Source: Amoebophrya sp. A120 (lineage: Eukaryota; Protista; Dinoflagellata). From it: 64,000 bases of DNA. Below, in pieces: positions 2,512-63,900 of this stretch. The stretch lies in NCBI GenBank assembly GCA_905178155.1, contig CAJINV010000004.1, forward strand, positions 8,832,411-8,896,410, given 5' to 3'. Each line of letters opens with the position of its first letter. Position 1 is the stretch's first letter. The translations under genes and the position numbers were made by a program. Below the pieces are notes generated by a model. The model did not search any database and was not told the origin of the DNA. It saw only the letters and a list, made by a program, of their open reading frames with translations.

Positions 2512-5500
2512 ATGCCCGTGACCGTCTCGGGGGAAGTGGGCGGCAGCCTCCAAAGCGAGCTGCAGGAGATATTCGAGCACCTGGCGTCCTCCCTCCCCTA
2601 TTCTGAGTAAAAACGGGCCCACCCCAGAGTTGTCATGCAAAATCTGCATGCCAAAAAATAGAAATTTTCTCATGCAGACCCCATGAGAAGCATTGTCTAA
2701 TCATGTTTTGGAGTTTGTGATACTAGAATGAGCATGATGTGCGGGATCTGTGATGCTGCTGCACTAAGAAAAAAGGACTACACTATTGGGGCAAACTTGT
2801 CATGCGAAACAACCACAGCTGGTTGACTTGTCTAGCAGATTTCCCATCTTGATGACCCTGGTGTGGGGACAGTTTTCCCCACGATACCCCCGATGACTTC
2901 CACACCACGACCGCCCAACAGGCGCTGGCCGCAGCCAAGGGGGACGAGGACGAAGCGGGTTCGGTGGAGGAGCACCGGCGACGGCTGGTCGAGAAGGAGA
3001 TTTTTCTGCAGCTCGGCAAAAAACTGGTCGTCAACTCGGGTTACAGCTGCTACGACCTCGTGGGCCCGCTGTTTCAGGTGGAGCTGCACCAGGAATTTCA
3101 ACGCGAAGTCGCCATCACGACCAGCAACATCGAGCAAAACGCCCCCGTGGAGGAGGAAAACACGGAGGAAGGGGAAGAAACTGCCGGCGCGGCGGAGAAC
3201 GCAGACGTAGATGCCGCGGCGGGAGAGCAGGAGGTGGCCGTGGCCGGGACGGAACAAACGTCCACCCAGATCTGCATGCGGACCAAGATGCAGAGCATTT
3301 TCCAAGAGCCGAAATACGCAGCCATGATGCGAAATGACGACCTCCGACCCTTCTACTGCAGTGGCGCCAAGCAGTCGAAACGACAACAGTACGTCTGAGA
3401 ATTTCGGGTTGATGAGGTTTGTCTCTCGCCTGCGAAATTCACTTCGATGAACTTGTGTTTTCCGCATCACAATTTCTCATTCACTGTGGTTATAGAGAAA
3501 TATCTTCAACTGATGATGTTCCAGGCGCCAAAGGGAAGAATACGCGGGCGTCGGTTTGAAGCGACTGACGGGGAACATGGCAAGTATCAAGAAGGAGTTC
3601 TACCGGCTGTTCTCGCACTTTGCGATTGAGTCAAAAGCGATCCATTATCCTGAGTAAAAACGTCCCCACCCCATAGTTGTCATGCAGATTTGCGACCACA
3701 GGAAGATTTGTAATGCGCATCCCCATGTGAAGCATTTTCAATCGTGTTTTGGAATTTGTAATGCTGGAAACAGGATGAGACAATGGATTTCTGATGCGGC
3801 TTCCCTTGCCAACCAGCACTACACTGCAGAGGGAAAGTTGTCATGCACAGCTCCCAAAACTTGGAGATTTGTGTCCCTAGATTCCCAACTTGACTATGGG
3901 GTGGGGATGTTTTTGCACAGGATATCCATCCAGAGCTGTTCATGTTTCAGGACGAGTCGGAATTGGACGCGAAAACGGTACTTGTTAATTTTGGGGTTTT
4001 TATTTGTCATGCTGGGTCGGAAAGAGAGTTTTTTTGTCATGCTGGATGGGAAAGTAAGAGGGATTGAATTTGATTTTGAATCGTTTCAAAATTTATTCCA
4101 GATACAACCCATCAACCAAGTTTTGACGCAAACGATGCTGCGGTATGAAAGTGCACAACTCCCCCTCCCCCTCATTTGGATGGCATCCGCAGCAACACAA
4201 GTCCTGGCAGCACACATGCAGCTTTTGCATGACAAATTTACGACTGATTGTAGTGCTGTTTCGGCTTCGGGAATCTGTCATGCATAGTAGTGGCACAAGG
4301 CAGAAGGTGGAGTTGGTGTTATGCATGAGAAATGAGAACGAGGGGGAGTTGTGCACTGTCATATGCGGTTCCGCGGTGACGTGACGCGCGTGAACGACCC
4401 GGCGAGCGGTGTGCTGGTGTATGAGGATGAGTTTGCCCTGTACTCCGCGCTGGACATTCTTGTGACCAAAACCCCGGCCCTGCGCAAAGCGGACTGCTAC
4501 CTCGTGCGGATCGACGACCCCAACAGCAAAATCGTAACCAGTTCGAGGCACCGCGGGCACGGGGGCAGCGTGGACGGCGGATCCTCCACTTTCGGCGGTA
4601 CCACGACAACGAACTCCCTATCCCTGGCGCACAACCCGATGCACCAAACGTCAACGGAAAATCTCGCACAGCAGCGCAGCCCCGGGGGACGGGAGGAGGA
4701 GAGTTCCATGCTGTTCGACGCGTCGAAGCAAGAGACCATGGGAACAAGCAAAACGCTGGCGGGGGGGAACTCCTACGGTACGCTGGCGAAGATGCAGAAG
4801 CAGAAGGGGCTGATAAGGAACCCCGTGCACAAAACCGCGCCCGGGCTGGGGTTGACGCAGGAACCACAACCGACGAGGAGTCAGCTGGACTCGACGTACC
4901 AAAATATGGACCCCGCAGAGCTGGACTCACCCGGAGACGAAGGCTTTGAAGTAGCGGGGTTGGGAGGTAATAAATAAGAGTGGATTTTTGTATTGCATAC
5001 CATGTGAAAGTGAAAGGAGAATATAGAACTCGTGGTGCAAAACGACAAACTGCAACTAGAACTTTGCGTGTCCTGGTCATGCATGGCCATATTCCAAACT
5101 ACAGGCGACTCCCCGACAAATCTCAACCGGCTTTACGAGCCCGCAGCGCATTTTTCCTTTCCCGCCAGCGGCACCAACACCGCTTCCGGCGCGTCTTCTG
5201 CCAGCGCCAGCAACTCAGCAGCCGGCGGGCAGGGCGGCAAGCAGGACATTGTGCAGCCGGTGTCGGTGTACCTCTGTCTCTCCGCGCACGTGTGCAAAAT
5301 CACGTTGTACACGGAGCAAGCCTACCTTCTGTACCAGAAGCAGGAGCAGAAGAAAAAATTTGAAGATTTGATGATCCTCGCCGGAACGATGAACGACGAA
5401 GTGCTCGTTTCGCAGGCGTTGGAAGTGATCCACAACGTGTTATGCACTGCAAATATGTCTGAGTCTGGAACATGGAAACTTGTCATGCCAGATCTGGATC

Positions 5501-8500
5501 ATGCAAAAATCTGTGTTGCAGGATTACCAAAAGCTGGCCACTTTTGACCAAGTTGACAGGGGATTTCTCATGCAGAATAGGCAACATGACAGAGGTCTGA
5601 TAGTATCTGTCCTGCAAGGTTCTGCATTCCAGACCTCATGCGTCATGTACCACATGCATCACAAGTTTGCATTTTTCCAGACCCAGACATTTTTGAAATA
5701 GATACGTGTGGCCGCACGACAAATCCTCCGCCAGCGGGAGCAGTCTGTCGCCAACATATGAGCTGCAAAAGTATCGTACTAGTATAGATTGCATTACAAA
5801 TTTCCTGTGCGTGAGAAATGCAAATAAAATCTGTAATGCGGATTTATCTTGACAGAGAAATTTGTAATGCGTGGGTGCAATTACGACGAGTAGTACGATA
5901 CTTTTGCAATGCATACAACAGTGGTGCACCAAATTGCCGCGAACGGGAACGCAAGCTTACTGTCCAAGATGTTCAAGCAGTACCCGCAGTTCATGAGGTA
6001 GTACGAGGAGATGGTGATCATGAAATTTGTGATCATGCTCCATGTACATCTGTGTTTGATCCACTTCTAGTTGTCATGCGAGATGCCGTACAAAACCTGA
6101 AACAACATTCAACAGCGCGATGCTCGTGACCCCGGACAACGGCGGCGCGCTCCCACTGATGGTGGCGGTGTACCAACAGCAACTGAAAACAGCGGTGCTC
6201 CTGCTCCGTGCCTTGGTAGAACTAGTGAAGCACCACGCGAAGGAGAAGATGGACTACGCGCAGATGCTGCGGGAGGATCCGGAGGCAACCGTAACGCCCG
6301 CGCAGTTGCCGCCGGTTCTGGAAACGCTCGTCGCGTTCTACCTGAAAGCGCAGCAGATCGCCAACCCGCTAGCAGGTGTGTCCGCGTCGAAACGCGCATC
6401 GCCAAAAGCGGCGAGGAACAGCGCAAATCAATCCGGAACGAGTACTTCTCTGAACACCAGCTCCATGAACAGTGTGCAGGAAGACGGCAGTATCCTCGAT
6501 CCCTGTGCAGTTTTACCAGAATTTTGGTACTGCAGCGATTTTGTTTTGGACAAGTTGGCGCAGGGCACGTACCCATTGGTACCGCTGGAAGAGGACGAGC
6601 AGATACACGCGACAAGGTTGAGCCAATTGCAGGAATTGTGGACGCTCTTTGGGGCGCTGGGATTCGGTATTGTTTGATAGATGAACTGTAAGTATGATTT
6701 ATTTGATTTGTCATGCAATTTGTAGTGCAAGATCAAGAAGGATTTGATCTTTATTTGGTATTTGTATTGCACACACTCACACTCCGGCGCACCACGCGAC
6801 CAAAGGTACCGCCAACAACGACCGCGTTACCCGCGCCGTGCAGCTCGAGCTGCTGCAGCTCGCCACCTATCAAATGCAAATATGTCTGGGTCGGAGAGGT
6901 TGCAAGACTTGTCATGCAGGTTTTCCATGACGCGCGAGGTCTGTCATCCACGACCTAGCATGACAGATTCTGTGCGACCTCTATCATGCCTGTCCTGCAT
7001 GAGAAACTGCCTCTCGGTTAGGTCAGAAGTGGAAAGCTTTTGGCACTCATGCAACACAGATTTTTGCATGATTCGGATTTAGCATGACAAGTTGCAATCT
7101 TCCAGACCCAGACATTTTTGCAACCCATACCACCTTCCTCGCGCTGATCAAAGCCAGAGACAGTTCGAAACGGACGGTATTGATGCTGGCGTGCAGGATG
7201 AAAAACCCGGTGCACGAGGGAATGGTAAAGTTCATCCTGGAAAAAGTACCCGACTGCGAGCTGAACGCACTGGACCAGTGGAACAAGTCCGCGGTCGACT
7301 ACGTGATGGAATCCAGCAGCACAAGTTCGGCGAAACTGTTGTTAGACTACGGTGCGAAAGACGCGATGGGCCAGGATGTGCTGCTCAGAGCAACATTGGA
7401 CAACAACGCGCACGTGATTCAGTTTCTCTTGAGCTACGTGCAGACCACCGGGGCGGCCGGAGGTAGTAATACTGGATCGATGTGATCTGTGTAGCGTGAT
7501 TGTTTGGTTGAAGGTTTCGTTCATTGAATAAAACTGAATCTCAATTCTGTCCGTACGCATAAGTATATTATCGAAGCATACTTAAAATGGAAAGAATCAA
7601 CCATCTCCCAGATTCGGACGCCGCTGGTTGGAGCGCGGGCAACGCGTTGTGGCTCCTTCGCCGTGGCGCACAAGCGACGGGCACGTTTTGCACCTGTTTC
7701 ATCCCGGCGAATTGTCAGGAGCTGCGGGTTCGCTACCCGTTGGTGTTCGGCAGAACCTTCCCGAGAATCAAGTCCCTCGTCCGAGACAGCAACGCGGGCA
7801 AGGTGTTAGAGGACTACCGGAATCTCAACGAAAGGTTAGAACAGGAGCAGAAGGAGCGGGAAGGGAAAAACATAGGGCTCATCCCCGTGCCGAAGAACCC
7901 GAAGGGGGAGTCTCTCGGTGCATTAACCGGTCTGGACGGGTTGGACATCTTCGTTATCAATTGCAAAAATGTCTGGGTCTGGAAAAATGCAACTTGTAAT
8001 GCTGTCTGCGGGTTCTAAAAATTAAAATATCTGTGTTGCATGAGTAGCAAGAGGACTCAATTCTTGGCACGCGAAGAGGGCATTTGTCATGCGTAGTTAG
8101 CATCAAGAAGCTCTCAAAAAATCTGTGATGCTAGCACCAGCATCACAGACCTGACGGGTCATGCAAAATGTGCATGACAGGCCCCGACTCTTCCAGACCC
8201 AGACAATTTTGCATTTGATATTCGTCGGCCGGGTGCAGTGCTGGATCTGCAAGAAAACGCACACCGGGTCGGAATCCTGGGTGGGGCCGGTCGCGTTGCA
8301 GCTGAAGTTCGAGGCGAAGAACGACGAGAAGGGCGACGACCTGCTCGCGCAGGCGGACGCCGCGAGGACGGGGACAAGGCCCGCCAGTCGGGGGAACAGT
8401 CCGCAGAAAGGGAACAAGCCGGGCACCGCAGAGTCGAACTCACCAAGTCCGAGGAGAAGTACGTCCTTATTTTGTGCTACAAATTATATGCTTTTCCTGC

Positions 8501-9147
8501 TTTTGCATCCATTTTCGTATGACAAATGTTTCCTCGGACCACCCACCCCTCCGGGCTTTAGTTGCACAGTTTGTTTTTAAGCATGACAAATGTTTCCACT
8601 GATACAGTTTTCATCATCCGCATGGCAAAATGAAATGAAAACGATCACATGAAAAGGTAAATCCCCCGGAGCAGCAGACGATGGTAGTGACGCTGCACCC
8701 ACGTTACGGCTTTTCATGCACCACGCCTGCTGTGTCGGCTTGGAAAACTACCTCAACGAGGAAGCTGCCAGAAGGGAGGCACAGATACCGAAGGTACTTT
8801 ATGTACTTAAGGCTGTTTTTTTATCAGGAGATAATGTGCAGGACCACAAACACAGTGTTTTTCTCGCACTTCTGCCGGACTCGTGATGTGTATAGAAGCT
8901 GCAACCACAAGTTCTAAAAAAAAATTCATCACAGCGTTCCCAAGGCGGTATCCCGAAAGCCCGCGCGCGGCAGCTGCTCAAGGACGCAAAGTCATTTGAG
9001 CACGAGTTTCGGGAGGTACCAGCGACGGCAACACGGACGTGGAAAACCTCCCGTGGGTTCGAGAACGTCGGGTTAAAGCCGCCGAGCTACGCCGGGGCAT
9101 CGGACAACCTTGGGTCGCTCAAGAAGGGGGAGTACACGATCCGGTGA
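2512..9147 (+). CDS. Multi-exon ankyrin-repeat protein (5' end uncertain)
   Basis: Removing 7 elements and GT-AG introns (3389-3524, 3978-4101, 4967-5026, 5998-6115, 6667-~6805, 7463-7611, 8459-~8677, 8794-8934) gives one open frame with ankyrin motifs TVVHQIAANGNASLL, KRTVLMLAC, NALDQWNKSAVDY and AKLLLDYGA; TGA ends at 9147. Confidence 0.72.
2599..2886. mobile_element. Introner-like element, family B
   Basis: TATTCTGAGTAAAAACGGGCCCAC...GTGGGGACAGTTTTCCCCACGATA; DR tcccc/ccccc; removal gives SLPDDF. Confidence 0.8.
3646..3924. mobile_element. Introner-like element, family B
   Basis: TATCCTGAGTAAAAACGTCCCCAC TIR; DR tccat; frame restored (AIHPELF). Confidence 0.9.
4144..4363. mobile_element. 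Introner-like element, family D
   Basis: TATGAAAGTGCACAACTCCCCCT...AGGGGGAGTTGTGCACTGTCATA; DR tgcgg. Confidence 0.9.
5441..5704. mobile_element. Introner-like element, family A
   Basis: ATGTCTGAGTCTGGAA...TTCCAGACCCAGACAT core; DR cgtgt. Confidence 0.9.
5757..5915. mobile_element. Introner-like element, family C
   Basis: TGCAAAAGTATCGTACT...AGTACGATACTTTTGCA; DR caaca. Confidence 0.9.
6868..7129. mobile_element. Introner-like element, family A (opposite orientation to 5441)
   Basis: Family A TIR; DR ccacc. Confidence 0.9.
7955..8220. mobile_element. Introner-like element, family A
   Basis: Family A TIR; DR ttcgt. Confidence 0.9.
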
Positions 9148-10159: not shown

Positions 10160-13100
10160 ATGGCGGCTGCAGCTTCATCTCTCCTCGCTGTACATCCCTT
10201 ATGCCAGTACACAACTCCCCCTCCCCCCCATCTGTGTAACATGAGCGGCAATACAAGCAGCACCCAGACTGCCGGTTTTGCATGACAAATTGGCACTGGA
10301 TTATAGTGCTATTTGGGCTACCAGAACTTGTCATGCAAATAGTGCCAAGGGGCACAGCCCGGATTAGGGATTTTGCATTACAAATGAGGGGGAGGGGGAG
10401 TTGTGGTTGTGCACTCTCATATCCCTCAACATCCAGCGTCTTCTCGGGTTCCCGGCGCGTCGCTTCGGATTTCCTGACCGCCGCGCAAAATGCGAGCGCA
10501 CTCTCCTGGTACCGGGAGTGGTCCCCGCACGCGTTTTTCAAGACGAAACCCACCAACGCGGATGTAAAGCGGTACTGCGACTTGTGGGTCGGCAGCCTGC
10601 TGTCTACTTCCGCGGCACCTTCTGGAGCAAGTGGACATACGGGAGGACGAGGCGGGGACGAGGAGGACCACACTATTGGTTCCACCCCTGGTGGTTCTAC
10701 TTCACGGCTTAATTCTGCTCTCGGAGGTGGAGTACCTGCGTTACCCACGACCAGTGCAATTGCACTTCCGCGGAATTATCAGAAGCCGGGAAGTAGATCT
10801 CCACTACAGGCTCCACCTTCGATCGACGGCACGAAGGCGCCCCAACTGCTCCACGCCGGCGAGGAGCTCGGCTGCTACTACCACCTGTCCCGCCTCATTC
10901 TCACCGCGACTCACGCTCCTGCGGCCGGGGTTCTCCTCCAGCGGGTGACGGAGGAGAAATTTGTGGAGAGGCAATGCGAGAATGACAGTGGGGGGAAGGA
11001 CATCTACCAACTGATCCGGATCTACGAAAACTGCTCCACGGCGATTATTGCGGCGAAAGCGAAAGAAAAGGGCGGTGGTCATCTTCCCGGAAGGAGTGGA
11101 GCTGGTAATGCTCCCTGTGCATCATCAACCAGCAGCGGAGGTTCTTCTTCTTCCCCAAGTAGAACATCGACTACAACTTGGGCATCCGAAATCGTCGTTG
11201 CGATCCAACGTTTTCTTCTACCCCGCGTAAGCGTATCGCAGTTCTCTGCGCAAAGTCTGGCGCTGGTGCTGCAGCATCTGAGTAAGCTCTGCGAAGTCCA
11301 CGACTTGCAGAATGTGGACATTTTTCAACATCTGATGTTGAAGGGAGACAGTTCTACTTCAGGAGGAAAAATAACTCGGGCGTCCGCGTCGTCGTCTCCA
11401 CCGTACTATCGTGGTAAAAATGATATTGTTCACCGCGCCGTCAACTCGTCTGACGTAGTAGAAGATTTCAGCAACAATTTCCATTTTATGCGACAGTGGT
11501 GCACGGCCGCCAGCTCCTGCCTGGACTCCTTCGCCACACGAGAGCTTGCGCACGGTGGATTCGCGTTCGCGAGGGTTTTGCAAACGACCATCGATGAGAA
11601 GCAACAGCGACGGAAAAAAACGCTGCTTTTCCAGGTGGATCTGGACCAGCATTCCCGGAAATTTGCAAAAAAGTGGTGCTCGGAGCTGCTGTTGCGATGC
11701 AGATCGGATAATTGGATGACGACGACAGCGTCAGATACTAGTAGTTCTAGTTGCACTTCTGTCTCGCATATGAACCATTCCGACCTGAACTCCCAAGCGG
11801 TCGCTGTGAGCTTGCAGACTTTGGGTCTGTTTGCCAGCTATCAGGTCTTCGTTCCGCAATCCGAAAGTAGTAGTACACGACCAGGGGGTAGTACTCGCAC
11901 TGACTCGCACGACGTCGGCGATGAGCAGAATCTTCGCGTCGCCCCTAGCACATCCGCAGCGGTGAAGGAGCTCTCTTTGCTCCTGGCTGAGAAATTTTTC
12001 CTCGCCAATTCCGATACCAAGGAAGACCCGCTTGGCCCGACGCATTTCATCGGCGCTCTGCACGCGCTGAGCCGGCTGTCTTTCGCGGAGTTTCTGTCGC
12101 CGGAAAAGAGCGGCGAATTCGCGTTAAGGTGGATTGCTGCGTACTTGGGCCGGGAGAGCGAGAAGTTCTCTTTGCAAAATTTGTCGAACGCGGGATATGG
12201 GATAGGGAGATTGCTGTCGACGAGCAGGTTTGGAGGAATACCATCACATGATGTGCAAGAAACACGACGATCTGGATCATCAGCGACAAGTGGCAAAAAT
12301 CTACTGAGTGTCGCAAATCACCCGCTTCAGCAGCAGCCGATCCTGCAGCCCGAGTTCCTGATTCGTGAGTTTCTAGCCAAGTGGCAAAGAGAGGTGGCAG
12401 AGAAGAATCTGAACCCGCTAAACATCCGGGACCTGACCAACATGATGGCAGGTGTTGGGAAGTGCGCGGAGATTCTGCACACGTTCACCTCGATGGGAGC
12501 AAACAAGGAGGGCGGCTGTCCTAGTGGCGCGGCGTCCGATGATTGCCCTCTCGAGGGCGTTGAGGATATTTTGGAGGACGACCACGCACCTGCGCAAATG
12601 AAAGAAGTCGATGCGCGTGAGTCACAGCAGTCCTGTTCACGACTGCTGCGCAAGACGATGAAGCTGTCCGGCCGTGGAGTGCTACGCCCACCGACGACGA
12701 CAAAGCCGAAGCCGCTGCTCGACCCAGACTTCCTAAAAAACTGGCGAACAACCGCTACGGAGAAAATATCTAGTTTCACCCCGCAAGCCCTGGCGCACAG
12801 TCTCAGCGGGTTGGCGAGCAGTGTGTGCGAGGACGTTTCTTCTACAGAAGATGATTATGACGGAGCTAAAGCTACTACTTCTGGAGGTACTAGAAGTTGT
12901 TCTGCGATTGGTGAAGAAGCTGCTGGTGTACTATCATCGTCATCATCGTCATCATCGCCCAACAACAAGGACATTGTTGCAGAAATCCAAACTTACCTTT
13001 CCGATTGGCACTCGCAGCTTTTGAAAACCAAACATACCTTCAACGACCAAGCGGTAAATGTGAGCCTCGTAGCAATACTGAAATTCCTGCAAGGAGCTTC

Positions 13101-15153: not shown

Positions 15154-18100
15154 ATGGGTCGCGCGGCCCGTGAATCCGAGGTCCGCAGGAGGACGGGCGG
15201 CGGGCCGGCGACCACAATTCAGATCGGGAAGAAGAAGCAACCGGAGCCCGAGGAGGAAAAGCCCGAAGAATCTTCGTCAGAGGATAGTTCCCAGTACGAT
15301 GACCTCCCCGGCTTCATTTCCGCCGGCATGCGGCAAAGGAGTAAGCCGCAGCTGGATCCGGACGAAGAGAAGCGAAAAGAGGAAGAGAGCGCCGCCTACA
15401 TGCAGAAGATGATGGACATGAGCAAGGACATGATCGCGCAGCGGGACGCGGAAGACTCGAAGAAGATCCAGGAATCCAGCAAGGCGTTGAGCGGCGCCGC
15501 GCGGCAGCGGGAGACGGAGATGCAGACGTTTTTGCAGGAAAAAACTGACGACGTCGATTTGCAGCACCGACAGAAAGTCTTGGAGTCCCTGACGGCGGAG
15601 GCGCACGTGGACAAGAAAGTGGTAGAATTCGACAGCGAATCGGATCAGGAGATGGTGGACGCGGCGGAGATCGTCAAGGAAGCGCAGCGCAAGATGGGGA
15701 TCGAAGTGTCCGAAGTGCGGGTATGCAGTGCAAAAGCATCGCACTAGTAGGAATAGCATGACAAATATTTCCAAGAAGAAAAATAGAATTTGTATTGCTG
15801 ATTCACCTAAGATAGGAGATTTGTCATGCATCACAGCAATTGCTACGAGTGCAATTATACTTTTGCAATGCATAGTGGGAAACGGTGGACATTTTACGGG
15901 ACAAGCTGATGGTGAAGAACACGTTTTGGGGCCGGTTGATGTATCCTGTGCAAAAGTATCGTGCTCGTACTACTTGCGTTTATGCATTACAAATCTTTTT
16001 CTTTAGGCAAATCCGCATTACAAATTTGATTTGTAATGCTAAGGCAATTTGTAATGCAATTTATATTAGTACGATGCTTTTGCTTTTGCAATTCATATGA
16101 TGTTCCAAAAAGCGATGGAGGAGAAGAGGCGGAAGCACCCTGATTTCGTCCACCCCTTCCCCAAAACCTACGAACGGGTGAACGACTTGAAGTTCGAGGG
16201 CTGCGTCGCCTTTTTCATGGTCTTCAACGGCGTGACCCTGGCGCTGGGGGCGGAGCGACACCCGGACGTATCAAATGCAAATATGTCTGGGTCTGGAAAC
16301 TTGTAATGCTGCGTTGGGAATAGTGAATGCCCTGTGAAGATGCACAGCCAAGCATGAGAAATATCTGCGCTTCTTCCTGGTGCGTTTTTCGCATGACAAA
16401 CTGCGTTTTTGCATGACAGGCAAAAGGATCTCTTCTTGGACACGCATCACAAACTTTTTGGTCATGCCAGACAAGCATGACAAATCTCGCTATCTTCCAG
16501 ACCCAGACATTTTTGCATTTGTTAGGACGGGTACCCGGTGTATTTGACCGTTTTGGTATCCAAAGGAAAAAACCGCCCTTCCCATATCAAAACGAAATTT
16601 CTGATGCTGGAATTGTGTACACAAATCCGAGCTGTCTTGCTGGAAAGCACTGCAGGCCCATACTAAGTGTGAGGAGAGAGGTTTTGGCCTAGGCACTTAG
16701 CATGAAAAACGTCCGCGCCGTAGGCCCAACAGCATGACAGGCCGCCTGCGCAATGCCGCGGAGCCTGCGGAGTTGCCTTCTTGCAAGACAGACGCCATTT
16801 GTGGCCACAAATCAGCATCACAAAGATTATACTCTTGCAGCATGGGGAGGGGGGATGTTTCCTTTTGATATTTGGAGCACATTTTCACCTTCGTCTTCGT
16901 GGTCGAGGCGACGATGCGGTATCTGGCGTTCGGGTGGCCGTGGCTGTTGGAATTCTACAACGCCGCGGATGTGTTTCTCATCTTCTTCACCGGCGTCCTT
17001 GTGATGTGGATCCTGGAGCCGATGGGCATTGAGTCCGAGTTCATGCGCAACTTTTCCATCCTTCGGTTACTCCGCTTACTGAAACTGATGCGGACGGTAT
17101 CCAAGAAAAAAACTTTGTTCGTGTAACTTTCGTTGGCTGACAGCATCACAAATTTGCTCTACATAATAGAGAAAGCCTGTCATGCGTGGCTTGTGAGGGA
17201 AAACACACACGAAAAGAGGACTTCGTGACTGTCTGGCATGACAGGCGTAACTCTGTTGCATGTTCTGCATCACAGAGTTAAGTACACTTACGCAGTTTTT
17301 TTCTCGCGATAGACGGTCCGCGCGGTGCCGGAATTCGAGCTCGTCTGGCGGTTGATTCGCGTGGGCGTAAAGTCCGGGAAGCTGCTCATGTGGGCGATCT
17401 ATGCATTGCAAATATGTCTGGGTCTGGAAAAATGGAGCTTGTATTGCGTGTCGAGGATTCCAGAAAAATCTGTATTCCATAAAAGCAACAAAAGCGCCGT
17501 GATGAAAAAACGCAGTTTGTATTATGCGAACTAAGGATGAGAAAGGGTCCAAAAGAAATTTGTTATGCTGCACTGCTCTTGCAGGCGTGGTCACTCACGG
17601 CCATTCAGCATCACAAATTTCCAGACCCAGACACTTTTGCACTTGATACGATCATCGACACGACCTTCATCATGTTCCTCTTCGGGATTTTCTTCACCGT
17701 ATCCACTGCAAAAGTATCGTATTCGTATTGCAATCATGCATTACAAATCTTTTTCTCAATGTAAATCCGCATTATTTTATTTCTCATCATGCTGAGGAAA
17801 TTTGGAATGCATTCATACGAGTGCGATGCATACTTTTGCAGTTCATATACCGTCTTGGTCGGAAAGGCGGACGCGTTTGTGCACGACGACACCATCTTAT
17901 CCAAGAAAAAAATTGTGTAAGTGTAAATCTGTGATGCAGAACATGCAACAGAGTTACGCCTGTCATGCCAGACAGCCATGCAGTCCTCTTTTCATGTTTG
18001 TTTTCCCTTACAAACCGCGCCTGACAGGTTTTCTCTGTCATGTAGAGCAAATTTGTGATGCTGTCAGCCACAGAAAGTTACACTAACACAGTTTTTTCCT

Positions 18101-19348: not shown

Positions 19349-19841
19349 GGAAAAAGCCGCGTTGCGTTGGGAGCACGTGCAACAGGTCCTCGTGGAGGCA
19401 CGATGCTTGTCGCTGTTTCATGGTTTCAGGTTTCCAGATGAAATAACCGACAGTCGTATTGACGCCCAATGTACATACAGCTACAGTGGAGGTTCCAAGA
19501 ACAAAATTAGTGATTAGAGAAGTTGATGCAAAAAAGATTCGAATATTTCTGGCTGCCCATCAGTATCAGTACCGCAACAAAAACAGCGTGTCTTGTGATT
19601 GGTCCAGCTTTCTCGTCGGCGAGCTGGAGAGAACAACTAGCTCGTAGGAGCGGAGTGTGGGTGAATCCTTACCTTGTGTCGAAAAGAAGCTTAAGGAAAG
19701 GAGAGTCCCGAGCAAGCGTGATGAAAATCTTCAAACTAAGCCGTGGTGAAAATCAAACCTAGGTTGCAGCTCGGTGACATTAAGTATTGATTCTTCATTT
19801 CTCTTCAGTATCTGTTAGAAAAAGTCAAAGCTTGTGCGACC

Positions 19842-47935: not shown

Positions 47936-48597
47936 ATGTCGGCAAACTTGACGCAGACGGTTCTGACTCTGAATAAGGAGTTCGACAAGGCTCAGGACAA
48001 CCTGCACTCGATTGCTATGGAAGTGTCAGAATCGAAATTGACAAAATCGAAAAATTTGTGATGCACAAAATCGATGTCAGTTGGAGCCTCAGTCTCCAAG
48101 TGGCGCATGACAAATTTCGGGAGCACCCAAATCCAGTTTGTCATGCAGTTTGGGCGAAGAAGACTCCTCCTGTCATGCTACCCTGGCAGCACATTTTATA
48201 ACCCTAAACAGGCTCACAATCGGTCTCATTTGCCTGCTCCCCAATACAGGCCTTCAGTGCCCTACATTTTACGCATCACAGATCATTTCGATTTTCTTTG
48301 TTGATTTCGATCCTGACAGTTCCATAATTGCCCAGCTCTGCAGCCAAGCGGAAGAGCGGATCCGCAAGTCGCAGTCGCTGCAAAATGACTTTGCACGGTA
48401 CAGGATATTGGTCTGGTGTTTGTCAACTACATACGAGATGAGTACACATGCATGGCAGTATTTGATGTCATGCAAGTAACTAAAGCTATAGCTCTGTCAA
48501 AAATTCTCTCAGGCAATTCCACCGGCTCTCTGAGCAGACGCGGCAGATCATCACCGCTGCAGAGTCGCTGCAAGACACGGATCCGACACTGAAGTGA
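47936..48597 (+). CDS. Small (~76 aa) coiled-coil protein, missed by the ORF track
   Basis: MSANLTQTVLTLNKEFDKAQDNLHSIAQLCSQAEERIRKSQSLQNDFARQFHRLSEQTRQ..., after removing one element and a GT-AG intron. Confidence 0.7.
48016..48326. mobile_element. Introner-like element, family H
   Basis: TATGGAAGTGTCAGAATCGAAAT / ATTTCGATCCTGACAGTTCCATA; DR attgc. Confidence 0.88.
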
Positions 48598-54127: not shown

Positions 54128-56028
54128 ATGGTCGTGACCCGTTCCCCCCTCCACCCCCGAACGCTCGCGAAGGCGCTGACTGTCCTCGCACTCACGACTA
54201 CTCAGCACCTGGTAGATGCGAAGAAGAAGGGGAACAAGAAGAAAAATGCGAAACCCAGCTACTCAGAAGATAACATACCACCCGGCGGCGCGAACTACGA
54301 CGACATTCTTGGCGGTGGGGGAAAGGGAGGACTTGGGGGCCTCGGCGGACTCGGCGGAGACGACGGGTATGGGGATTTGTTCAAGCCAGAAACCAACTGC
54401 CCAGTTTTCACGTGCCCAAAAGGACAGAAGCCGGTGCAGAAGGGTGGGAGTAAAAAGAAGGACTTCCCGGTGGTTTACGGTTGCGACGCGAGTTCCTTTG
54501 ACATGATGATGATGCTGGATCCGAGTAATCTAAACGGCGCGAAAAAGGGGGGAACCAGGGAAAAATTGTGGAAGGTATAATAAAGTAGAGCTGCTGCAAA
54601 TTGTTAGTGCAATTGGAGGTTGCGATCATGCATGATTGACAAAACACAACTCATACTATGCCTGATGCTTTTTCCGCATCGCGATCTCATACACTACGAA
54701 AAATTATCAGTGTTGTGTCGGGCGGGACATCGGACAGCAAACTTGCGTATCAAATGCAAAAATGTCTGGGTCTGGAAGAATGCAAGTTTGTCATGCTTGT
54801 CTGGCATGACTCGAGAATCTGTGTTGCATAGCCACGAAGAGGCCCTCTTACCTGTCATGCAAAAACGCAGTTTGCCATGCGGAATACGTAAGACATGGCA
54901 GCCAAAAAATTCGTCATGCGTAGCTGCGTATTGCAGTGCGTTTATCATTCACTTTCAGCATTACAAGTTTCCAGACCGAGACATATTTGCAATCCATATT
55001 GCGGCAGAACGAAGAAAGAGATAGAGGACGACTTTGGCACATGTACAAACAAGAAATGCAAGGGAGATAAGAACTGCAAAATGAACGCACAATTCGGTTC
55101 CATGATGTCCGGGGGAATCAGTGGCGACAAATGCGACGAGTATAGGGATATTTAAACAACTACGTGAATTTAAATTTTTTTCTATTTTGTCATGCGGTGC
55201 ATGCACGAGCACGAATCTTCTGAGCAGTGTGTCAATCAATCTGTGTAGCTGCATCATGTTTAATACATATACAACATTATCATCCAGGTACAACAAATCC
55301 CAAGCAGCGAACTGCGAGTGCGTTCCGGAGGATGACACGCAAGACTCCTTCAAAAAAGCTTTGAAGGGTTTCTACGGGATTTTTGCAAAAGAGAAACTGC
55401 CGAAGGACGGCGGCGAAATCGACGACCAGTGGATGTCCGAAACGGTGTACAAAAGCTTCAAGAAGGGACAAGAGCCGAAGATCTGGTAATTTTTGATTAA
55501 AAACTTGACAAAATTGACACGAATGGAAACGAAGTAGTACCACAGCATGACAAAGAATAAGAAAAACACTTCTTTTGGGTGGAAAAATTTCTGCATTTGA
55601 CAAAAAACTCCTTAAAAACAGGAACGCTCTGTTCACAAAATACTCCTCCAATCTCCGGCACGAGGACAAGCCGAAGCCAAAATACGACTACCCGCCCCCC
55701 ATGGACGAGGACCTGCCGGATATGAAAACCTCCAGTAGTTCTGCGGATGCGAAGAAAAACACAGAAAAACCGGCAAAAACCTCCAGCACATATGAACTGC
55801 AAAAGTATCGTACTCGTAGAAATGCATGACAAATTCCCTCAGCGTGAGAAATATAATTTGTCATGCGGATTTAGCTTGAGACGAAAATTTGTAATGCATG
55901 ATTGCGATTACTACGAGTGCGATACTTTTGCACAGGATAGCACAACCACCACCACGATGCCCGGGGATGACGACTTTGGGGCGACGCTTGGGGGGGACGA
56001 AGAACTAGTCGAAGATGTGGAGTTGTAA
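54128..56028 (+). CDS. Secreted group XII phospholipase A2-like protein (probably inactive)
   Basis: Signal peptide; CPVFTCPKG..VYGC..KCCVGRDIGQQTCGRTK..F..C...C..YNKSQAANCEC pattern; GT-AG introns 54575-54710, 55140-55287 and ~55487-55621; ends EDVEL. Confidence 0.75.
54748..54998. mobile_element. Introner-like element, family A
   Basis: DR ttgcg. Confidence 0.9.
55791..55939. mobile_element. Introner-like element, family C
   Basis: DR gcaca. Confidence 0.9.
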
Positions 56029-56719: not shown

Positions 56720-59700
56720 ATGGAGCCCTCCAGAAACACCCCCTCCTCCACCTCCTCCTCCGCCGCCGCGCCACCGCCTCCGGAGCCAAAATGGGTCGTA
56801 TCAAGTGCAAAAATGTCTGGGTCTGGAAGATTTCTAGATTTGCCATGCATATTTTCCATGAGCAATGATGTCTGTAATACATGCCGCAGCATCACAAATT
56901 TTTAGAGGGCTTTGTGATACCTCTACCGCATGAGAAATGCCGTCTCCGCGTAGGACAAACCCGACCCCTATCCTTGCTGGTCATGCAATACAAATTTTTT
57001 TTAGAATCCACAGACAGCATCACAAGTTGTGACCTTCCAGACCCAGACATTTTTGCAGTTGATAGGTCGCGAAGATGAGCAATTTTGCGATCCAATACAA
57101 CCTCACCTGTGCCTCTGCCGCACTCGCTGTGATAAGAGATGCAAACGCTAATATCAATCCGAGCGAGACTCCACCGCCCGGGGCGATTCCCGCAGAGCCC
57201 GCCTGGGCGTCCCAATTCCTTCTCGCCGCTGTCTTCGCCGGGACGCTGGTCGGGATGCTCACGATGGGCTACCTAGGCGACAAACTCGGAATCCAGACGG
57301 CTATGATCTTGACCCAGGGCATCACCGTGCTCGCCGCCTTTTGCAACGTCTTTGTTGCGCCGTTGTGGCTCGGGAATGGGGGCGGGGAAGGACCGGTGGT
57401 GGAAAGGAGCGGAACACCAGCAACATCAAGTTTTGACCCGGTACTACAAACGCATCCTCAAGCCGGCGCGGAGGGATTCTATTCCGGTTTCGTTTTCGCG
57501 AGGTTCTTCCTAGGCGTCGGTGTTGGCGGGATGTACCCACTCTCCGCTGCGAGTTCCGTTGCTTCGATGAGCACAACTACCGCCTCAAATAACGAAATAA
57601 ACCCTCCTGATGAACCGCGCACCAACTACCCCTCCGCGATTGCGAAGCAGGCCGGGAAAGCGTTTCTGTGGCAGACGCCGGGCGTGATTGCGCCGTACCT
57701 GGTGACGTTGCTGGTCTGCGATAGCGCGATCGACAGCAGCGGGGGTGCAGCGATTAGTACTTCGAAGAACTGTATCAAAGAAAAAAAGTTCGTCACGATC
57801 ACTCATGCGCATTCTTGCAATACAAAATTGTTTGTCATGCGTAAAAATGCATCACAGCCAAACTTTATTAGGGATCTCCCTAGTGTTTCTGCAATACAAG
57901 GAAAGTTTGTGATGCTGAGAAAACTTCTAATGCAAAACCTGCAAGTTAGTGACTGTGACAAACTTTTTTCTCTCCATAAACTGGTCTGTTCTGTCCCAGT
58001 TCCAGACTATTGTCGGACTGGGGATGGTGCCCTGCTGTCTGGTGCTCGGGAGGCACTGCTACGCGGTTTGGGCCGTCGGTGGGAGAAGAGGGAATACTGC
58101 AACAGGGAGCGTGAGGACGGTGGGTACTGCAACTGCTGGTGCAGCGCAGCAAGTGCAACCACGACCAGCGGGCCTCGAGATAGCACGCGATGTGGAGCTC
58201 GGGCATTCAAACTTATGGAAGTGAAGAAAAAGTAGTATGTTGACAGGGTTTTTGTCATGCTGAAGCTGAGTGAACTGTTGTGTCGAGGAAAATAGAGGAG
58301 CGAAAACGCCAGATACACTGAGGAACAAAAATAATCATGACGCATTATAAATATATCCTGTTACAACGCTACACGTTCACTAGCATATGGCACGCTTTCA
58401 GCATCTTCAGCAGCTGCAAACGCGCGAGGACGTGATCAGCAGCGCCAACAAGGAGCAGTGTACAATCCGAATCTGCGGGAGGAGCTGTTGTCCACAAGTG
58501 CAGCGGGGGCCCATGCACACCAGTCGCAGTCGGGTAGTAGATCGGTTCTTCAGTCACCTTCAGGCAGTTCCTCGTCCAGCAGCATGGACAAAAGGCTTCT
58601 CCTTCTCCTGATCGGCAGCGGCGGCACCTGGTTTCTGTTCGACGTTAGCTTTTTATGAGAGTGCACAACCTGCCCCCTCATTTGTATGGCATGAAAAGCA
58701 ATACAAACAGCACCATACGTGGAGCCTGTGCATGACAAACTCATGTGCCGAATGTAGTACTGTTTGGGCTCCCAGAATCTGTCATGCAAACAGTACCACA
58801 GGGATGCACTTGAATTTGGGATTTTGCATGACAAACGAGGGGGAGGGAGAGTTGTGCACTGTTATACTTTTACGGCACATCCGTCTTCGCTCCGTTCATC
58901 ATCGTATGAAAGTGCACAACCCCGCCCCCTCCCCCTCATTTGTATTGCATGAACAGCAATACAAGCGTCAGCAAGAATACAGGTTTTGCATGACAAATTT
59001 GCACTGGATTGTGGTGCTCTTTGGGCTTCCAGGATTTGTCATGCAAACAGTGCTACAAGGCAGCAGCTGGATTTGGAATTTTGCATGACAAATGAGGGGG
59101 AGGGGGAGTTGTGCACTGTCATACATCGAAAAGATTCTCCCACAGGCATCCCTTCAAGCGGTCTGCTGGCAAACGGTGTTGTCGAATCTGGTCGGCGTGG
59201 TTGGTTCCCTCCTCTCGGTCGCGCACGTAAGCAGTACCAGCTGCCGACAGGGACTGAGGCTCGGGTTTGTGCTTTTAGCGACGGCTTTTTTTCTCTTCTC
59301 CGTCGTTGAGCATTTCAAGATCGAGCTGCCGCCACTTGTTTCTGGGGATCCGAAGAAAACGGAGGGGTTACTGGCGCTGATCCTCTATTACGTGCTGCTT
59401 GTTTGCTGCAACTTCGGCCCGAACGTCGCAACCTACGTCTTGCCCATGGTGTGCTTCCCGAAAGAGTCGCGCGTGACGTACCACGGCCGGTCAGCCGCGT
59501 GCGGGAAAGCGGGGGCCTTTCTGGGGACGCTGGTCTACCCGTTGTGTTTGCCGGTCGTGGGTGTGCCGGGGATCATGGGGATTCAAGCGGTTGTGAGCTT
59601 CCTGGGGTACGTTATTGCGGAACTGTTTGTGGGCGAAGGGGAGGGAGGTGGTGAACAGACCGGGAGTGGTGCTCCTGCGCGAGATGTAGCACTTGTATCA

Positions 59701-60937: not shown

Positions 60938-63900
60938 ATGACGGGAGACGAACGCGGGAGCGGGTCCCGCCAGAGGAAGAGAATGTGCGGGTTCTGCAAT
61001 GTTTTTACGACCCTGGTCGTTTCCCTCCACCTCCTCCTCGCCCCCACCTCACCAGTCTCTGCCCGGTCCTGCCCCGGTCGCACCTACACGGTGAACGACT
61101 ACATTGAGGCGGACTGTGTCACCTACGAGGGCCAACTCCGGTTCGAGGGGATCTGGGGCTTGAAGGAGATCAACATGCCGCGGCTAAAGCGCGTCCGCGG
61201 GGGGCTGTTCATCGAAGACAACCCGGATCTGGAGTCCATCTACATGCCACTTTTGGAGCGAGTGGACCACCGGTTGGAACGGTCCATCATCATCCGGAAC
61301 AACGGGCTGGGATACATATTGACCACGACGCCCCCGCCGCAAGTCTACAAGACGACCACCGCGGCGCCCAGTACCACTTCAACCACCAGTACGTCGACAA
61401 CGACGACGAGTCTGACGCTCTTCCCCATGTTCCGGTCCCTCGGGCAGGTGTTCGGCGGCAAAAACGCGGAGAAACATGCGAGGATGTTGAGCGAGGAACA
61501 GAAAACTTCACCAGCAAGAACCAGTACGGGAAGTGAAAGAGAGACAAGTGAACAACAAGCGGGGCATGCGCATGAAGATATTGATCCAACGCACTACCCA
61601 GATGAAAAGAACAATAAACCTGCAGACGGTGCTGGTCTTCAGCCTGGTCGTGAACAACAAGCTTCTTCCTCTCCTCGTGCTCTCACAACTACACAGATGG
61701 GTTTCACCACGGCGGAAAATCCGCTCGGGCAGTATACCTACAGCACCCGGCGGTGGATCACGCGGTCGAACCCGATCGCGAACAGCATGAATTTTCCCCG
61801 AGTCACGTACATCAGCAACAACATCGAGATCACGAACAACATGAAGCTCCAGTACTTGTTAATGGCGTATGGGAATTCCTTAAACCCGCTAGCAAACTAC
61901 TTCAACACGCCACGAACCGGTCCGCCGATCGACTGGCCGAGAGTCGGGGAGCGAGACGGAGACGGGAACTTGTTGACAACCGAAACGGCGGTTGTCGCCG
62001 GCCCCGGGCAAGTTCTGCTCGCGACGGCGGGGCCACCAACCCTTTCCGGTCCGAGTTTGGTGGTGTTTGAGTCGAATTCCGATGATGGGAGCACAACGTT
62101 ACCCCCGACAACGACCACGACCACCACCACAACGTTGGAGTTCGCTTTTATCGGGGTCACCGCGCAGGACCGGACGTCGATTATTTTGCACAGCAATCCC
62201 GATTTAGTCTTCATGAACATTGGCGGGAATGTCCGGGGGGAGGTGCATATTCGGGAAAACCCGGCGCTCCGCTCCATGTCGATGGACATGATGAACTCCA
62301 TCCGGATGACGGTGTTCATTCACGACAATCCGGTACTGAACGGCATCAATTTCCCGGCTTTGACCGAAGTTTTGTCGACCGGGCTGCACTATCAAATGCA
62401 AAAATGTCTGGGTCTGGAAACTTGTGATGCTGGGTGGCGTATCATGAGGAGGCCACAAGTGCTCGCTCAGCATGACAAGTTTCTGAGCTTCTAGATGTTG
62501 CCTATTCTGCATGACAAACTGCGTTTCTACATGACAGAAAAATGGCGCTCTTGGGTAACGTGCATGACAGATTTGAGAGTCATGCCAGACAAGCATGACA
62601 AACATGCACTCTTCCAGACCCAGACATTTTTACACTTGATATGCACTCTTTGGTCTTGCGGGATAACGGAATTGCCTGTACCTACTCCGGCTTCATGCGG
62701 TTCCCGTCGTTGCAACGGATTTCCGGGATGGTGACGATCACGGGGAACCGGTGGTTTGGGGTCATCGAATTCCCCTCCCTGGTCGAAACGGGGCCCGTCC
62801 CGTCGGACGGATACAGGCGGTTAGAGGATGGACATCAAAAAGCAGCGGTGGGGTCCGCAACTGAAACCATCAGTGAGCGGAGACAAGAACAGCACACGAC
62901 GCCACCCAAGAGCAAAAACAAATCTTCGACCTCCAAGGTTGTAACTACTACCCGTGGTAGCAAAAATGTTGACCGACATAACCATCCCAACTCCCTCGAC
63001 AATCGTCGTGGCGGGCAGAAGGTGCCGGATTTGCTTTCTCCACCGGATTGGCGGTCCGGTTTGATGTCAGAGGGGGAAAAGGAGCAGCGCAGACTGATGT
63101 TTTCCGAAAGAGAAGAGCTGGAGCTGGAAAAACACGCTGCACTAGAACGCGAAAAGTGGGACGCAGAAATTGAAATAGCGGAAAATAATGAGAAACAGTT
63201 ATTTGGTGGTCGTGTCAGGCAACTCACCACCGGCACGCCCTACACCACCGGGAAAGTGTCCGTCAATTCCGTCACTATCACGGATAACCAGCGGTTGTAC
63301 TACGTGAAATACTCCGGGATTCTCTACGGCAGCATGCAGGTCTCCGCCCAGTCGGACTTGGTGAACATCGATTCGCCGGATCTGCGCGAAATCCGGGGCA
63401 TGCTGTGGATCGAGAACAACGCGCAACTCGCGAGGGTTTCTCTAGCGAATTTGCAAACGCTCGGCGACACCTTCGACTACAGCTTGAAATTTGTCAGTAA
63501 CGGGCAAGGCGCGCAGGAGCGGACCGGGTTTTTTCAAGCACATGTTTTACGGTCGACAACCCGTGGGATTGTGTTCGCGGAGAACCAAAACTTTGCGAGA
63601 TTGCAATTTCCGCAAATGCAATCGACGGGGGAGACTTTGGGCTCATCCGTTTTCGTTCAGAACAACAAGGACCTTTCCCTATTGGATTTCAACGGCGAGA
63701 TGGAGGGCAACGTGGTGATTCATAACAACCCAGATGTCGAATCCATCCGGTTGGAGGGTCTTGCGAAGGTCAAGAACGACGGGAATCTGTACTTCACGGA
63801 CAACCAAGCGCTTCACACGGCGAATTTGGTGCAGTTAGTGGAATTGACCGGTGATTTAGTCCTGGGTCGGAACGGCTTGCTCGCCCGCGCGCACGGATCG

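Follow-up and report, generated by a model that had tools for sequence, protein, structure and literature searches.

What reads a short DNA word that recurs both in otherwise unrelated hairpin introns and in ordinary GT-AG introns of the same genome? The question is raised by a 64-kb stretch of Amoebophrya sp. A120 (contig CAJINV010000004.1, positions 8,832,411 to 8,896,410 of the forward strand), which was analysed as a whole, is called the window below and has a G+C content of about 50%. An initial annotation of this stretch, made from the sequence alone, had noticed the motif GCAT[GCT]ACA and its reverse complement and had taken them as a mark of all element families and of canonical introns as well. 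The carriers of the motif are the already known introner elements of A120-type Amoebophrya, which are removed from RNA as non-canonical introns. On balance, we lean towards the view that GCATnACA(A) is a conserved cis-element of duplex DNA and a candidate subterminal site at which the machinery that mobilizes every family of elements with TAT...ATA ends would bind.

The motif and the elements that carry it

The strict motif GCAT[GCT]ACA has 146 matches in the window on both strands (83 on the + strand, 63 on the - strand), compared with 6.28 +/- 2.18 expected for GCATBACA from 100 dinucleotide shuffles of the window, the largest of which gave 12. The matches split into 133 in TAT...ATA hairpin elements flanked by 5-bp target duplications, 10 in GT-AG introns and three that are unclassified (3464, 29850 and 38681); none of the 146 falls in a confirmed exon. 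When only the 45 element-like intervals defined by BLAST are counted, 129 matches lie inside them, and the 17 outside comprise five in RNA-shown GT-AG introns, four in gene-model introns, one in an intron read by eye and four in two further inverted-repeat elements (29687, 29758, 45777 and 45809), besides the unclassified ones. The span first assigned to the motif, 3978..62641, was too short on its left side, as matches also occur upstream, at 2631-3846.

RNA evidence consists of joints in contigs of runs X3 and X6, which show RNA-type behaviour, and covers positions 3900-23899. Outside that interval, intron and exon classes were taken from our own simple gene finder or, for one small gene, from reading by eye. 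The gene finder uses dynamic programming on both strands and combines codon log-odds with GT-AG introns and element-type introns; it placed two of the eight RNA-known GT-AG boundaries of gene 1 wrongly, missed the 5' part of that gene and missed the small gene at 47.9-48.6 kb. Coding potential in the window lies nearly all on the + strand (gene-model score 945, versus 7 for the - strand). Elements in the window were accepted with at least 13 of 20 matching bases in the terminal inverted repeats (TIRs) and an exact 5-bp target-site duplication (TSD), with at least 15 of 20 and 4/5 of the duplication, or with at least 17 of 20 and 3/5. BLAST with the clear elements as library then defined the element-like intervals and families. 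For an enlarged set, a metagenome collection was scanned with 19 bases taken from the inverted repeat of family 1, which gave 144 loci, reduced to 61 by the removal of overlaps and of one unrelated contig; with the window they make up 592,425 b. The 61 loci belong to the genome of the window or to one very close to it. Thus, they speak for a genome-wide property and not for independent species, and, because they were picked through family 1, that family is over-represented among them. Strict elements of the enlarged set have an exact 5-bp duplication, which was a condition of the search, and at least 14 of 20 terminal matches. Counts by sequence class were made on the window and 31 loci that have one dominant coding strand (32 sequences, 424 kb).

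Motif density in these 32 sequences is 11.95/kb in modelled element introns and 11.42/kb in elements outside gene models (about 12/kb for elements), 1.44/kb in high-confidence GT-AG introns, 0.38/kb in the remaining DNA and 0.06/kb in exons, which agrees with the rarity in exons and intergenic DNA first judged by eye. The high-confidence GT-AG introns contain 25 matches, compared with 2.52 +/- 1.66 in dinucleotide-type shuffles, so the enrichment supposed for canonical introns is real. The exons contain 22, compared with 14.2 +/- 3.7 in shuffles, and these 22 include element pieces mis-modelled as exon. In the window, GTCATGC and TGTCATG discriminate best among 7-mers between GT-AG introns and exons, with 7 versus 0 occurrences in 19.4 kb. 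However, the motif is not the general mark of canonical introns that had been proposed, since it is present in just 21 of the 84 high-confidence GT-AG introns. Overall density in the loci is the same as in the window (2.43/kb; 62 non-redundant loci including one unrelated contig).

A sequence logo extends the motif to GCAT[G/C/T]ACA[A/G][A/G]T. The central base of strict-element copies is most often G (429), followed by C (215), T (143) and A (9; n=796). The commonest one-base variants in elements of the enlarged set are GCAAnACA (190), GCATnAGA (137) and GCATnGCA (79). Window GT-AG introns contain the first of these as well, for example as TTTGTATTGCA at about 4987 and about 6760.

The element-like intervals of the window cover 9,887 b and fall into nine BLAST families with interiors that cannot be aligned with one another. 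Each family has one to six motif copies, except for one 94-b fragment, and the first observation, that the motif recurs in otherwise unrelated families, is confirmed. Thirty-two window candidates pass the TIR and TSD thresholds, and an exact 5-bp duplication is present in 26 window elements. The enlarged set contains 264 strict elements in 16 BLAST families; the motif is present in 256 of these elements and in 15 of the families, with 1-3.6 copies per element, and the family that lacks it is a singleton.

The elements are removed precisely. Among the joints listed (15 of 34), seven skip GT-AG introns and eight skip stretches with other ends (TG..TA, AC..AT, CA..TA, CT..AC, TT..TA, TA..GA and TC..TA), to which a contig jump over 3646-3924 is added. 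Each non-GT-AG stretch removed consists of one copy of the 5-bp repeat plus a TAT...ATA element in which 14-20 of 20 terminal bases are complementary. The joined exons of the first gene give an open frame of 988 codons, which indicates that GT-AG and non-GT-AG removal are both exact. The nine RNA-validated elements have fold z-scores of -4.8 to -10.2 (mean -7.4), whereas GT-AG introns average -0.5 and pieces of exon -0.6.

The elements are also true insertions in DNA. Locus L001 (positions 1-2128) matches window positions 18090-19299 at 91-98% identity, but in it three additional elements of family 1 interrupt about 100 b of an exon that is continuous in the window (18090-18259). The extra elements have four to five motif copies each and are flanked by 5-bp duplications, one exact and two with one mismatch, of sequence that is single-copy in the window. 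The window thus holds the empty sites of these copies, and L001 could come from a sister strain or else be an allele or a paralogue. In a separate locus, L061, positions 350-13050 contain about 30 elements in 13 kb with spacers of only 35-70 b, 75 motif matches and no long open reading frame (ORF); this region is probably a gene split into micro-exons by insertions.

The ends of the elements have a composite profile. The search itself imposes TAT, after which positions 4-10 vary, positions 11-13 are nearly fixed and the repeat is fixed again from position 16 onward. Positions 4-10 are hypervariable even within tight subfamilies (mismatch at position 7 reaches 27-32%, versus a background of 5-10%), in the window for example at 5441-5460, 6868-6887 and 7955-7974, and they are often non-complementary between the two ends of one copy (CAAA versus GGGT at 6868/7129, for example). 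This hypervariability may reflect end cutting or repair. Some elements have ends of the TATCCT type (22477, 3646, 39087 and 29161, TATCCTGAG..., and the right ends of 22838 and 55791, TATCCTGTG...). The 5' consensus of U12-type introns is RTATCCTT, which a TATCCT end with a preceding purine resembles. The likeness may be due to chance, as minor-spliceosome RNAs are reported absent by Farhat et al. (PMC7789003).

Candidate readers of the motif

Several lines of evidence were used to ask what recognizes the motif. First, it is conserved beyond its surroundings and roughly to the degree of the best-kept positions of the inverted repeats. In the four largest window families, pairwise identity is 0.75-0.92 in motif columns, 0.58-0.71 in other internal columns and 0.81-0.86 in the inverted repeats, with permutation p values for the motif columns of 0.014, 0.0006, 0.089 and 0.004. 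In subfamilies of the enlarged set with less than 12% mean distance, compared with their subfamily consensus and with CpG sites left out, 57 of 2161 motif sites are mismatched (2.6%), versus 487 of 9264 other internal sites (5.3%; Fisher p 6e-8). The footprint is narrow: mismatch is 1-4% in GCAT, at the background rate at the central base, 2-5% in ACA, intermediate at the next A and at background thereafter. An early impression that the inverted repeats evolve neutrally and that only the motif is constrained was withdrawn because the TIR average is inflated by the hypervariable positions 4-10.

Secondly, the motif has a regular position. In the 149 modelled elements, matches 25-60 b from an element end point inward (TGTnATGC) in 154 cases and the other way in 44, and the median distance of the outermost copy from the end is 42-45 b in four families. 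Adjacent copies in the same orientation are 31-33 bp apart in 117 of 322 pairs, from seven families, a spacing that would correspond to about three turns of B-DNA. For example, the spacings in the family-2 element at 22477..22755 are 49, 33, 48 and 31. Two pairs of this kind lie outside the BLAST families, one in an RNA-shown GT-AG intron (4005/4035, 30 b) and one in a small element (45777/45809, 32 b). The reading as a transposase binding site, one of two that had been offered, agrees with this anatomy (subterminal, inward, phased and conserved); the binding itself is putative, and the transposase it calls for was not found in the sequence searched (see below).

Third, the elements do not depend on the strand of the motif. 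The most one-sided family (window family 2, family 5 of the enlarged set) has 1 '+' motif versus 80 '-' motifs, but in loci with a clear gene strand it is inserted 11 times in sense and 8 times in antisense, and it is removed from RNA in both orientations (3646-3924 with all motifs '-', by the contig jump; 22477-22755 with all '+', by a joint). A strict copy is present in 145 of the 149 modelled non-canonical introns: the two strand forms occur together in 90 of them, the '-' form alone in 33 and the '+' form alone in 22, and 4 have neither. In elements the forms number 205 '+' and 244 '-'. Folding predictions for single strands pair 78% of motif bases, compared with 62% of other internal bases. 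Neither RNA form is thus needed for the removal of elements, which points to recognition on duplex DNA or else to the absence of any reader. Recognition of double-stranded DNA, most likely by the transposase or a cofactor, is favoured over a splicing code in single-stranded RNA, and the shared intron-definition signal of the initial annotation is disfavoured in its RNA form.

Two RNA-binding protein families whose sites resemble the motif were rejected on the same ground. The Pumilio site is UGUnAU. The RBFOX enhancer (U)GCAUG is similar in that GCATG is part of the motif, which is likewise enriched within introns. RBFOX sites, however, act on one RNA strand with position-dependent effects and belong to an animal protein family, while the motif here occurs in both strand forms and its C and T variants have no CATG. 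As the motif is strand-independent, neither reading was retained.

The GT-AG introns are what keeps an RNA code for introns alive as an explanation. All nine intron places named in the initial annotation contain strict matches; RNA joints place those at 4005, 4035, 6709 and 8581 in GT-AG introns, the others are placed there by gene model or by eye, and the RNA-shown intron match at 6072 was missing from that list. In the 84 high-confidence introns the sense form TGTnATGC is in excess, 19 versus 6 (p 0.015), and in the loci alone 16 versus 3 (p 0.004). Eight of the 19 '-' matches lie 25-48 b from the 5' splice site, but relative positions do not differ from uniform (Kolmogorov-Smirnov p 0.33). 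The G variant accounts for 19 of the 25 matches. Such a sense bias is not predicted by a purely DNA-level model of relics, and the excess of the G variant is likewise at odds with a neutral one.

Part of the GT-AG intron signal is nevertheless element debris, as indicated by profile tests and by a relic of an inverted repeat. Scores with element profiles exceed the 99th shuffle percentile in 14 of 21 motif-bearing introns, compared with 4 of 63 without the motif, and 9 of the 21 outscore all 20 controls that keep only the motif and three flanking bases. The intron at 8459..8656, for example, scores 10.6 with the family-1 profile, higher than all 20 implanted-motif controls. The predicted intron at 38116..38284, which has no strict motif, scores 26 bits with an element profile; its 21-b TIR relic (see table) shows that pieces of elements do occur in GT-AG introns. 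The remaining 12 introns may also be debris, since interiors vary between subfamilies and the library contains 16 families versus about 1,954 reported. Simple relic tests gave a weak signal (mean best BLAST score 23.2 versus 20.6 bits; shared 10-mers 3.2% versus 1.1-1.2%), and the window library holds so few of the reported families that these BLAST and k-mer tests do not exclude relics. The stronger claim that most canonical introns are decayed elements finds no support, as 63 of 84 are without the motif and their mean fold z-score is that of exons; in addition, no more than 9 of the 21 show element similarity beyond the motif, and position-conserved introns are reported to be 98.6% canonical (Farhat et al., PMC7789003).

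The starts of these introns were also compared. GTAT begins 13 of 21 motif-bearing and 24 of 63 motif-less introns (p 0.077), which is a trend only; it would fit an origin from G|TAT element ends. The signature of TAT, a spacer and AAA is absent at the starts of the 21 motif-bearing introns. A reading of them as hairpin relics was rejected, their fold z-scores being like those of exons. The branch site has the form yUnAy, which AUnAC resembles. A branch-site reading was also rejected, because '+' matches lie 1-156 b from the 3' end of GT-AG introns and the '-' form dominates. The diverged element at 29514..29798 is bordered by G on both sides and can be read, from sequence only, as GTAT...ATAG (29513-29799). 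Removal as a GT-AG intron would take the element and 2 b, while removal of the hairpin type would take the element and 5 b, and the former would leave one extra in-frame codon. A G-flanked element is a possible route from a hairpin intron to an ordinary intron.

The mechanism we propose starts from the miniature hairpin transposons with TAT...ATA ends and a 5-bp duplication, which carry GCATnACA(A) in 2-5 copies and occupy this A120-type genome in large numbers as non-canonical introns. The motif would be read on double-stranded DNA by a protein, putatively a transposase or its cofactor, and one mobilizing machinery would be common to all families. The copies in GT-AG introns, at about ten times chance and in a quarter of such introns, would in part be remnants of element insertions. 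Protein binding, the identity of the reader with a transposase, the sharing of the machinery and the remnant origin are all steps that we infer.

A number of points weigh against this proposal. Neither a transposase nor an integrase or DDE domain was detected in 12 ORFs of the window or in 78 of the 86 ORFs of at least 300 amino acids in the loci, the other eight of which overlap longer ORFs (656 kb examined in all), and A120 is reported to be without the transposases present in A25 (Farhat et al., PMC7789003). In addition, 44 of the 198 subterminal matches point outward, the 150-b palindromic family has the opposite arrangement of the motif, and low divergence within subfamilies could equally be explained by host selection after insertion. 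The GT-AG introns contribute their sense bias and the 12 of 21 motif-bearing cases with no element similarity beyond the motif, and every class assigned without RNA depends on a gene finder that misplaced a quarter of the GT-AG boundaries of gene 1 (2/8).

The best-surviving rival, although we consider it unlikely, is a signal for intron definition or splicing enhancement in RNA, where a host factor would read the pre-mRNA and aid the removal of hairpin elements and of some GT-AG introns, and elements would carry the motif out of need to be spliced. The confinement of the motif to removed sequence, the choice of GTCATGC and TGTCATG as the best intron-versus-exon words, the sense bias, the cluster of '-' matches near the 5' splice site and the halved divergence in young subfamilies all fit it. 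The motif-bearing GT-AG introns form no hairpins, 12 of 21 show no further element similarity, and Farhat et al. (PMC7789003) report U1 small nuclear RNA (snRNA) as absent, which would leave room for another reader of the 5' end. Against it stand the insertion and RNA removal of one-sided families in both orientations, the 55 of 149 modelled elements with a single form (33:22) and the four with none, the reversed arrangement relative to the 5' end in the 150-b family, the pairing of the motif in folds, its presence in only a quarter of GT-AG introns and the lack there of a significant positional preference.

A broader possibility, to which we give rather little credence, is that GCATnACA is the recognition word of an intron removal that is independent of GT-AG. 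The word would be read by a factor of host or domesticated origin, either on duplex DNA while transcription proceeds or on folded RNA; this factor would mark the exact removal of the element with one duplication and would assist a subset of GT-AG introns, in which selection would keep the sense form UGUCAUGC. The lineage is reported to be without U1 snRNA (Farhat et al., PMC7789003).

Less probable again is a host reader of duplex DNA or of the hairpin that is no transposase and marks insertions, for example a protein of silencing or chromatin, or a nuclease or recombinase that has been domesticated to guide GT-AG-independent removal. The strand-independent, phased and conserved anatomy suits it as well as it suits a mobilizing machinery, the absence of a transposase from the ORFs examined and, reportedly, from A120 (PMC7789003) speaks for it, and the constant removal of the element with exactly one duplication copy fits either precise excision or structure-guided splicing. 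It is, however, without a candidate protein, and a silencing mark leaves the retention of the motif in active lineages unexplained. The elements are in assembled DNA and are missing only from RNA-type contigs, so nothing suggests removal at the DNA level.

Least probable of all is that the motif has no sequence-specific reader and is a block shared from one ancestral element and kept by the zipping of arms or by recombination between families: in predicted folds 286 of 787 copies do have a second motif copy as partner and 366 some other sequence, motif and degenerate anti-motif alternate at 16-17 b in many modules, and the end design TAT + 7 + AAA of all families makes common descent plausible, but any complementary pair would suffice for zipping, while seven fixed bases persist in 15 families with unalignable flanks, the unpaired-looking central base avoids A (9/796), one-sided families have no anti-motif partners and the clean footprint with its free central base suggests contact by a reader.

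Comparison with known systems

The elements analysed here were matched with published descriptions. Farhat et al. 2021 (PMC7789003) describe the non-canonical introns of A120 as introner elements with a TIR of TAT, seven less conserved bases and AAA. The elements of the window agree with this description in their non-GT-AG RNA boundaries, TIRs (8-20 nt) of the TAT-7-AAA type, direct repeats of 3-5 nt at the boundaries and hairpins, as well as in their share of the DNA (about 15-19%), the number of families and the co-orientation of genes; their TIR signature fits the A120 type and not the A25 type. The 'undescribed splicing system' of the initial annotation is thus already in print. On a related contig, the closest named proteins to an RPB1 fragment are those of Chromera (61%) and Toxoplasma (64%), which places the source among the myzozoan alveolates. 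No family-specific inverted-repeat motif is reported by Farhat et al., who argue against a general mobilization by transposase, whereas a motif common to the families and the existence of filled as well as empty sites with 5-bp duplications argue for one insertion machinery at the DNA level.

The internal motif common to families was not found described in passages of the main text and one supplement of Farhat et al. (PMC7789003), nor in passages of Gozashti 2022 or Gozashti et al. 2025 (PMC12130899); in the main text of the latter, 'subterminal' and 'binding site' have 0 occurrences. The literal motif string occurs, among the matches listed, only in unrelated primer and vector contexts.

Integrases of Copia and Gypsy elements typically give 4-6 bp duplications. 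Gozashti et al. 2025 (PMC12130899) describe an A120 'family 38' that is flanked by TIRs and has ORFs related to such integrases. It is similar to the elements here in organism type and in its transposon-like TIRs, and duplications of 4-6 bp would fit the 5 bp found. In contrast, no integrase-like ORF is present in the 656 kb examined here, the comparison being one with the published description only.

The subterminal repeats to which transposases of plant TIR transposons bind offer a second likeness. En/Spm (CACTA) elements have a 12-bp subterminal motif for TNPA, and Ac/Ds elements have AAACGG hexamers. In both, as here, a short motif distinct from the TIR is repeated at both ends, direct and inverted, and is kept in non-autonomous derivatives. 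However, target duplications are 3 bp in CACTA and 8 bp in hAT elements, while they are 5 bp here, where no transposase was found. In addition, the elements here are only 110-320 bp long, so that the sites fill most of the element, and the motif is common to families with unalignable interiors and also occurs in GT-AG introns. A third likeness is with miniature inverted-repeat transposable elements (MITEs): in Fritillaria, Henriet et al. are said to have described, in 2019, MITE-derived introns that are removed by an adapted U2-type spliceosome with preferred ends of the AG-AC type. These too are miniature inverted-repeat elements in genes removed without GT-AG, but we know of no shared internal motif in them.

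The motif bears on how tens of thousands of Amoebophrya introns without splice signals, as described in those reports, are removed and on what mobilizes the elements (PMC7789003, PMC12130899). It gives a concrete handle as a bait for the reader, as a search key for an autonomous element and as a marker for dating and classifying elements. If the reader is a transposase, thousands of 'strain-specific families' would collapse into one mobilization system; with a splicing or marking factor in that role, GCATnACA would become the first cis-code known for this type of removal. A record of the conversion of hairpin introns into ordinary ones may also survive in the GT-AG introns that bear the motif.

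Features of the window

Table. Elements and GT-AG introns of the window, with copies of the strict motif and the interval skipped in RNA where there is one.
Feature	Positions	Strand	Terminal inverted repeat	Duplication	Motif	RNA skip or basis
Family 1 element	5441..5704		TATnnnnTGCAAAnATGTCTGGGTCTGGAA	CGTGT	rel. 41-, 216+	removed, 5435-5703
Family 1 element	6868..7129			CCACC	43-, 91+, 215+	removed, 6863-7129
Family 1 element	7955..8220			TTCGT	x5	removed, 7950-8220
Family 1 element	16269..16524				x5	
Family 1 element	17400..17648			CGATC	x1 strict, plus degenerate ones	
Family 1 partial copy	18445..18598				x1	
Family 1 element	23504..23755			CCTGA	x4, all +	removed, 23498-23754
Family 1 element	28488..28770			ACGTG	x2	
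Family 1 element	39813..40080				x3	
Family 1 element	40182..40446				x3	
Family 1 element	43477..43737			AAACA	x3	
Family 1 element	54748..54998			TTGCG	x3	
Family 1 element	56799..57064			GGTCG	x2	
Family 1 element	62390..62641			TGCAC	x5	
Family 2 element (one-sided family)	2599..2886		TATCCTGAGTAAAAACGT		x3, all -	
Family 2 element	3646..3924			TCCAT	x4, all -	contig jumps 3924/3925 to 3639/3640
Family 2 element, opposite orientation	22477..22755			CAAGA	x5, all +	removed, 22470-22753
Family 2, two fragments (28873-28958, 28984-29121)	28873..29121				x3	
Family 2 element	29161..29439			GAAGT	x3, all +	
Family 2 copy	34260..34557				x3, all +	
Family 2 element	39087..39365		20/20 match	CGCGG	x5, all +	
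Family 2 copy	44829..45102				x4, all -	
Family 3 element (palindrome, about 150 b)	5757..5915		TATGnnnTGCAAAAGTATCGTACT	CAACA	x3	removed, 5752-5915
Family 3 element	15722..15874				x3	
Family 3 element	15942..16097				x4	
Family 3 element	17700..17847				x1 strict	
Family 3 element	22838..22987			TCTTC	x4	removed, 22833-22987
Family 3 element	55791..55939			GCACA	x3	
Family 4 element	4144..4363		TATGAAAGTGCACAACTCCC	TGCGG	x2	removed, 4139-4363
Family 4 element	10200..10421			TCCCT	x3	
Family 4 element	36974..37237			GCGCA	x1 strict	
Family 4 element	58654..58866			CTTTT	x3	
Family 4 element	58905..59123			CATCG	x3	
Family 5 element	16557..16870		TATCnAAAGGAAAAA	TTTGG	x2	
Family 5 element	39433..39744			AATCC	x6	
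Family 5 copy	43788..44109				x2	
Family 6 element	17098..17304		TATCCAAGAAAAAAA		x4	
Family 6 element	17898..18106				x3	
Family 7, 94-b element-like fragment	24348..24441				none strict (sole such family unit)	
Family 8 element	48016..48326		TATGGAAGTGTCAGAATCGA	ATTGC	x5	
Family 9 element	57773..57978			AACTG	x3	
Diverged element, TIR like family 1	29514..29798		TATGCATTGCAAAT...TTGCAACGCATA		29687+, 29758+	
Small TIR element (about 108 b)	45741..45849		TAGCCAGGAAAAAACAC...GTGTTTTTTCCTGGATA		45777+/45809+, 32 b apart	
GT-AG intron (fold z 0.24, no hairpin)	3977..4100	+			4005-, 4035-, 30 b apart	RNA joint
GT-AG skip	4965-5102					RNA joint
GT-AG intron	5996..6113	+			6072-	RNA joint
GT-AG intron	6666..6804	+			6709-	RNA joint
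GT-AG skip	7461-7609					RNA joint
GT-AG intron	8459..8656	+			8581+; one-mismatch copy 80 b upstream	RNA joint
GT-AG skip	23218-23427					RNA joint
Predicted GT-AG intron	28104..28245	+			28144+	gene model
Predicted GT-AG intron	38116..38284	+	21-b family 2 TIR relic, 20/21 identical		none strict	predicted
GT-AG intron of small three-exon gene	48399..48512	+			48466-	by eye (GTACAGG...CTCAG)
Predicted GT-AG intron	55140..55287	+			55188-	gene model
Predicted GT-AG intron	55486..55621	+			55545+	gene model
Predicted GT-AG intron	58124..58452	+			58253-	gene model

Other features of the window were noted in passing. Rfam gave no match anywhere in the window. The 1,423-codon ORF at 10240-14508 has no Pfam match, and the depth of RNA-type contigs over 10570-14571 is 0-2.7, compared with 60-140 in neighbouring genes. 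Positions 20607-21101 contain a tandem array with 23.7 copies of a 21-b unit (AAGCCGGCGGAGGAAGAGGCC, 81% matches), which lies inside a long ORF of the + strand (19791-21275) and thus specifies a protein repeat of 7 residues. Pfam identified a sugar/MFS transporter that is split by elements (57066-58232 and 59089-59976) and two ORFs with receptor L domains, at 60827-62491 and 62599-63999.

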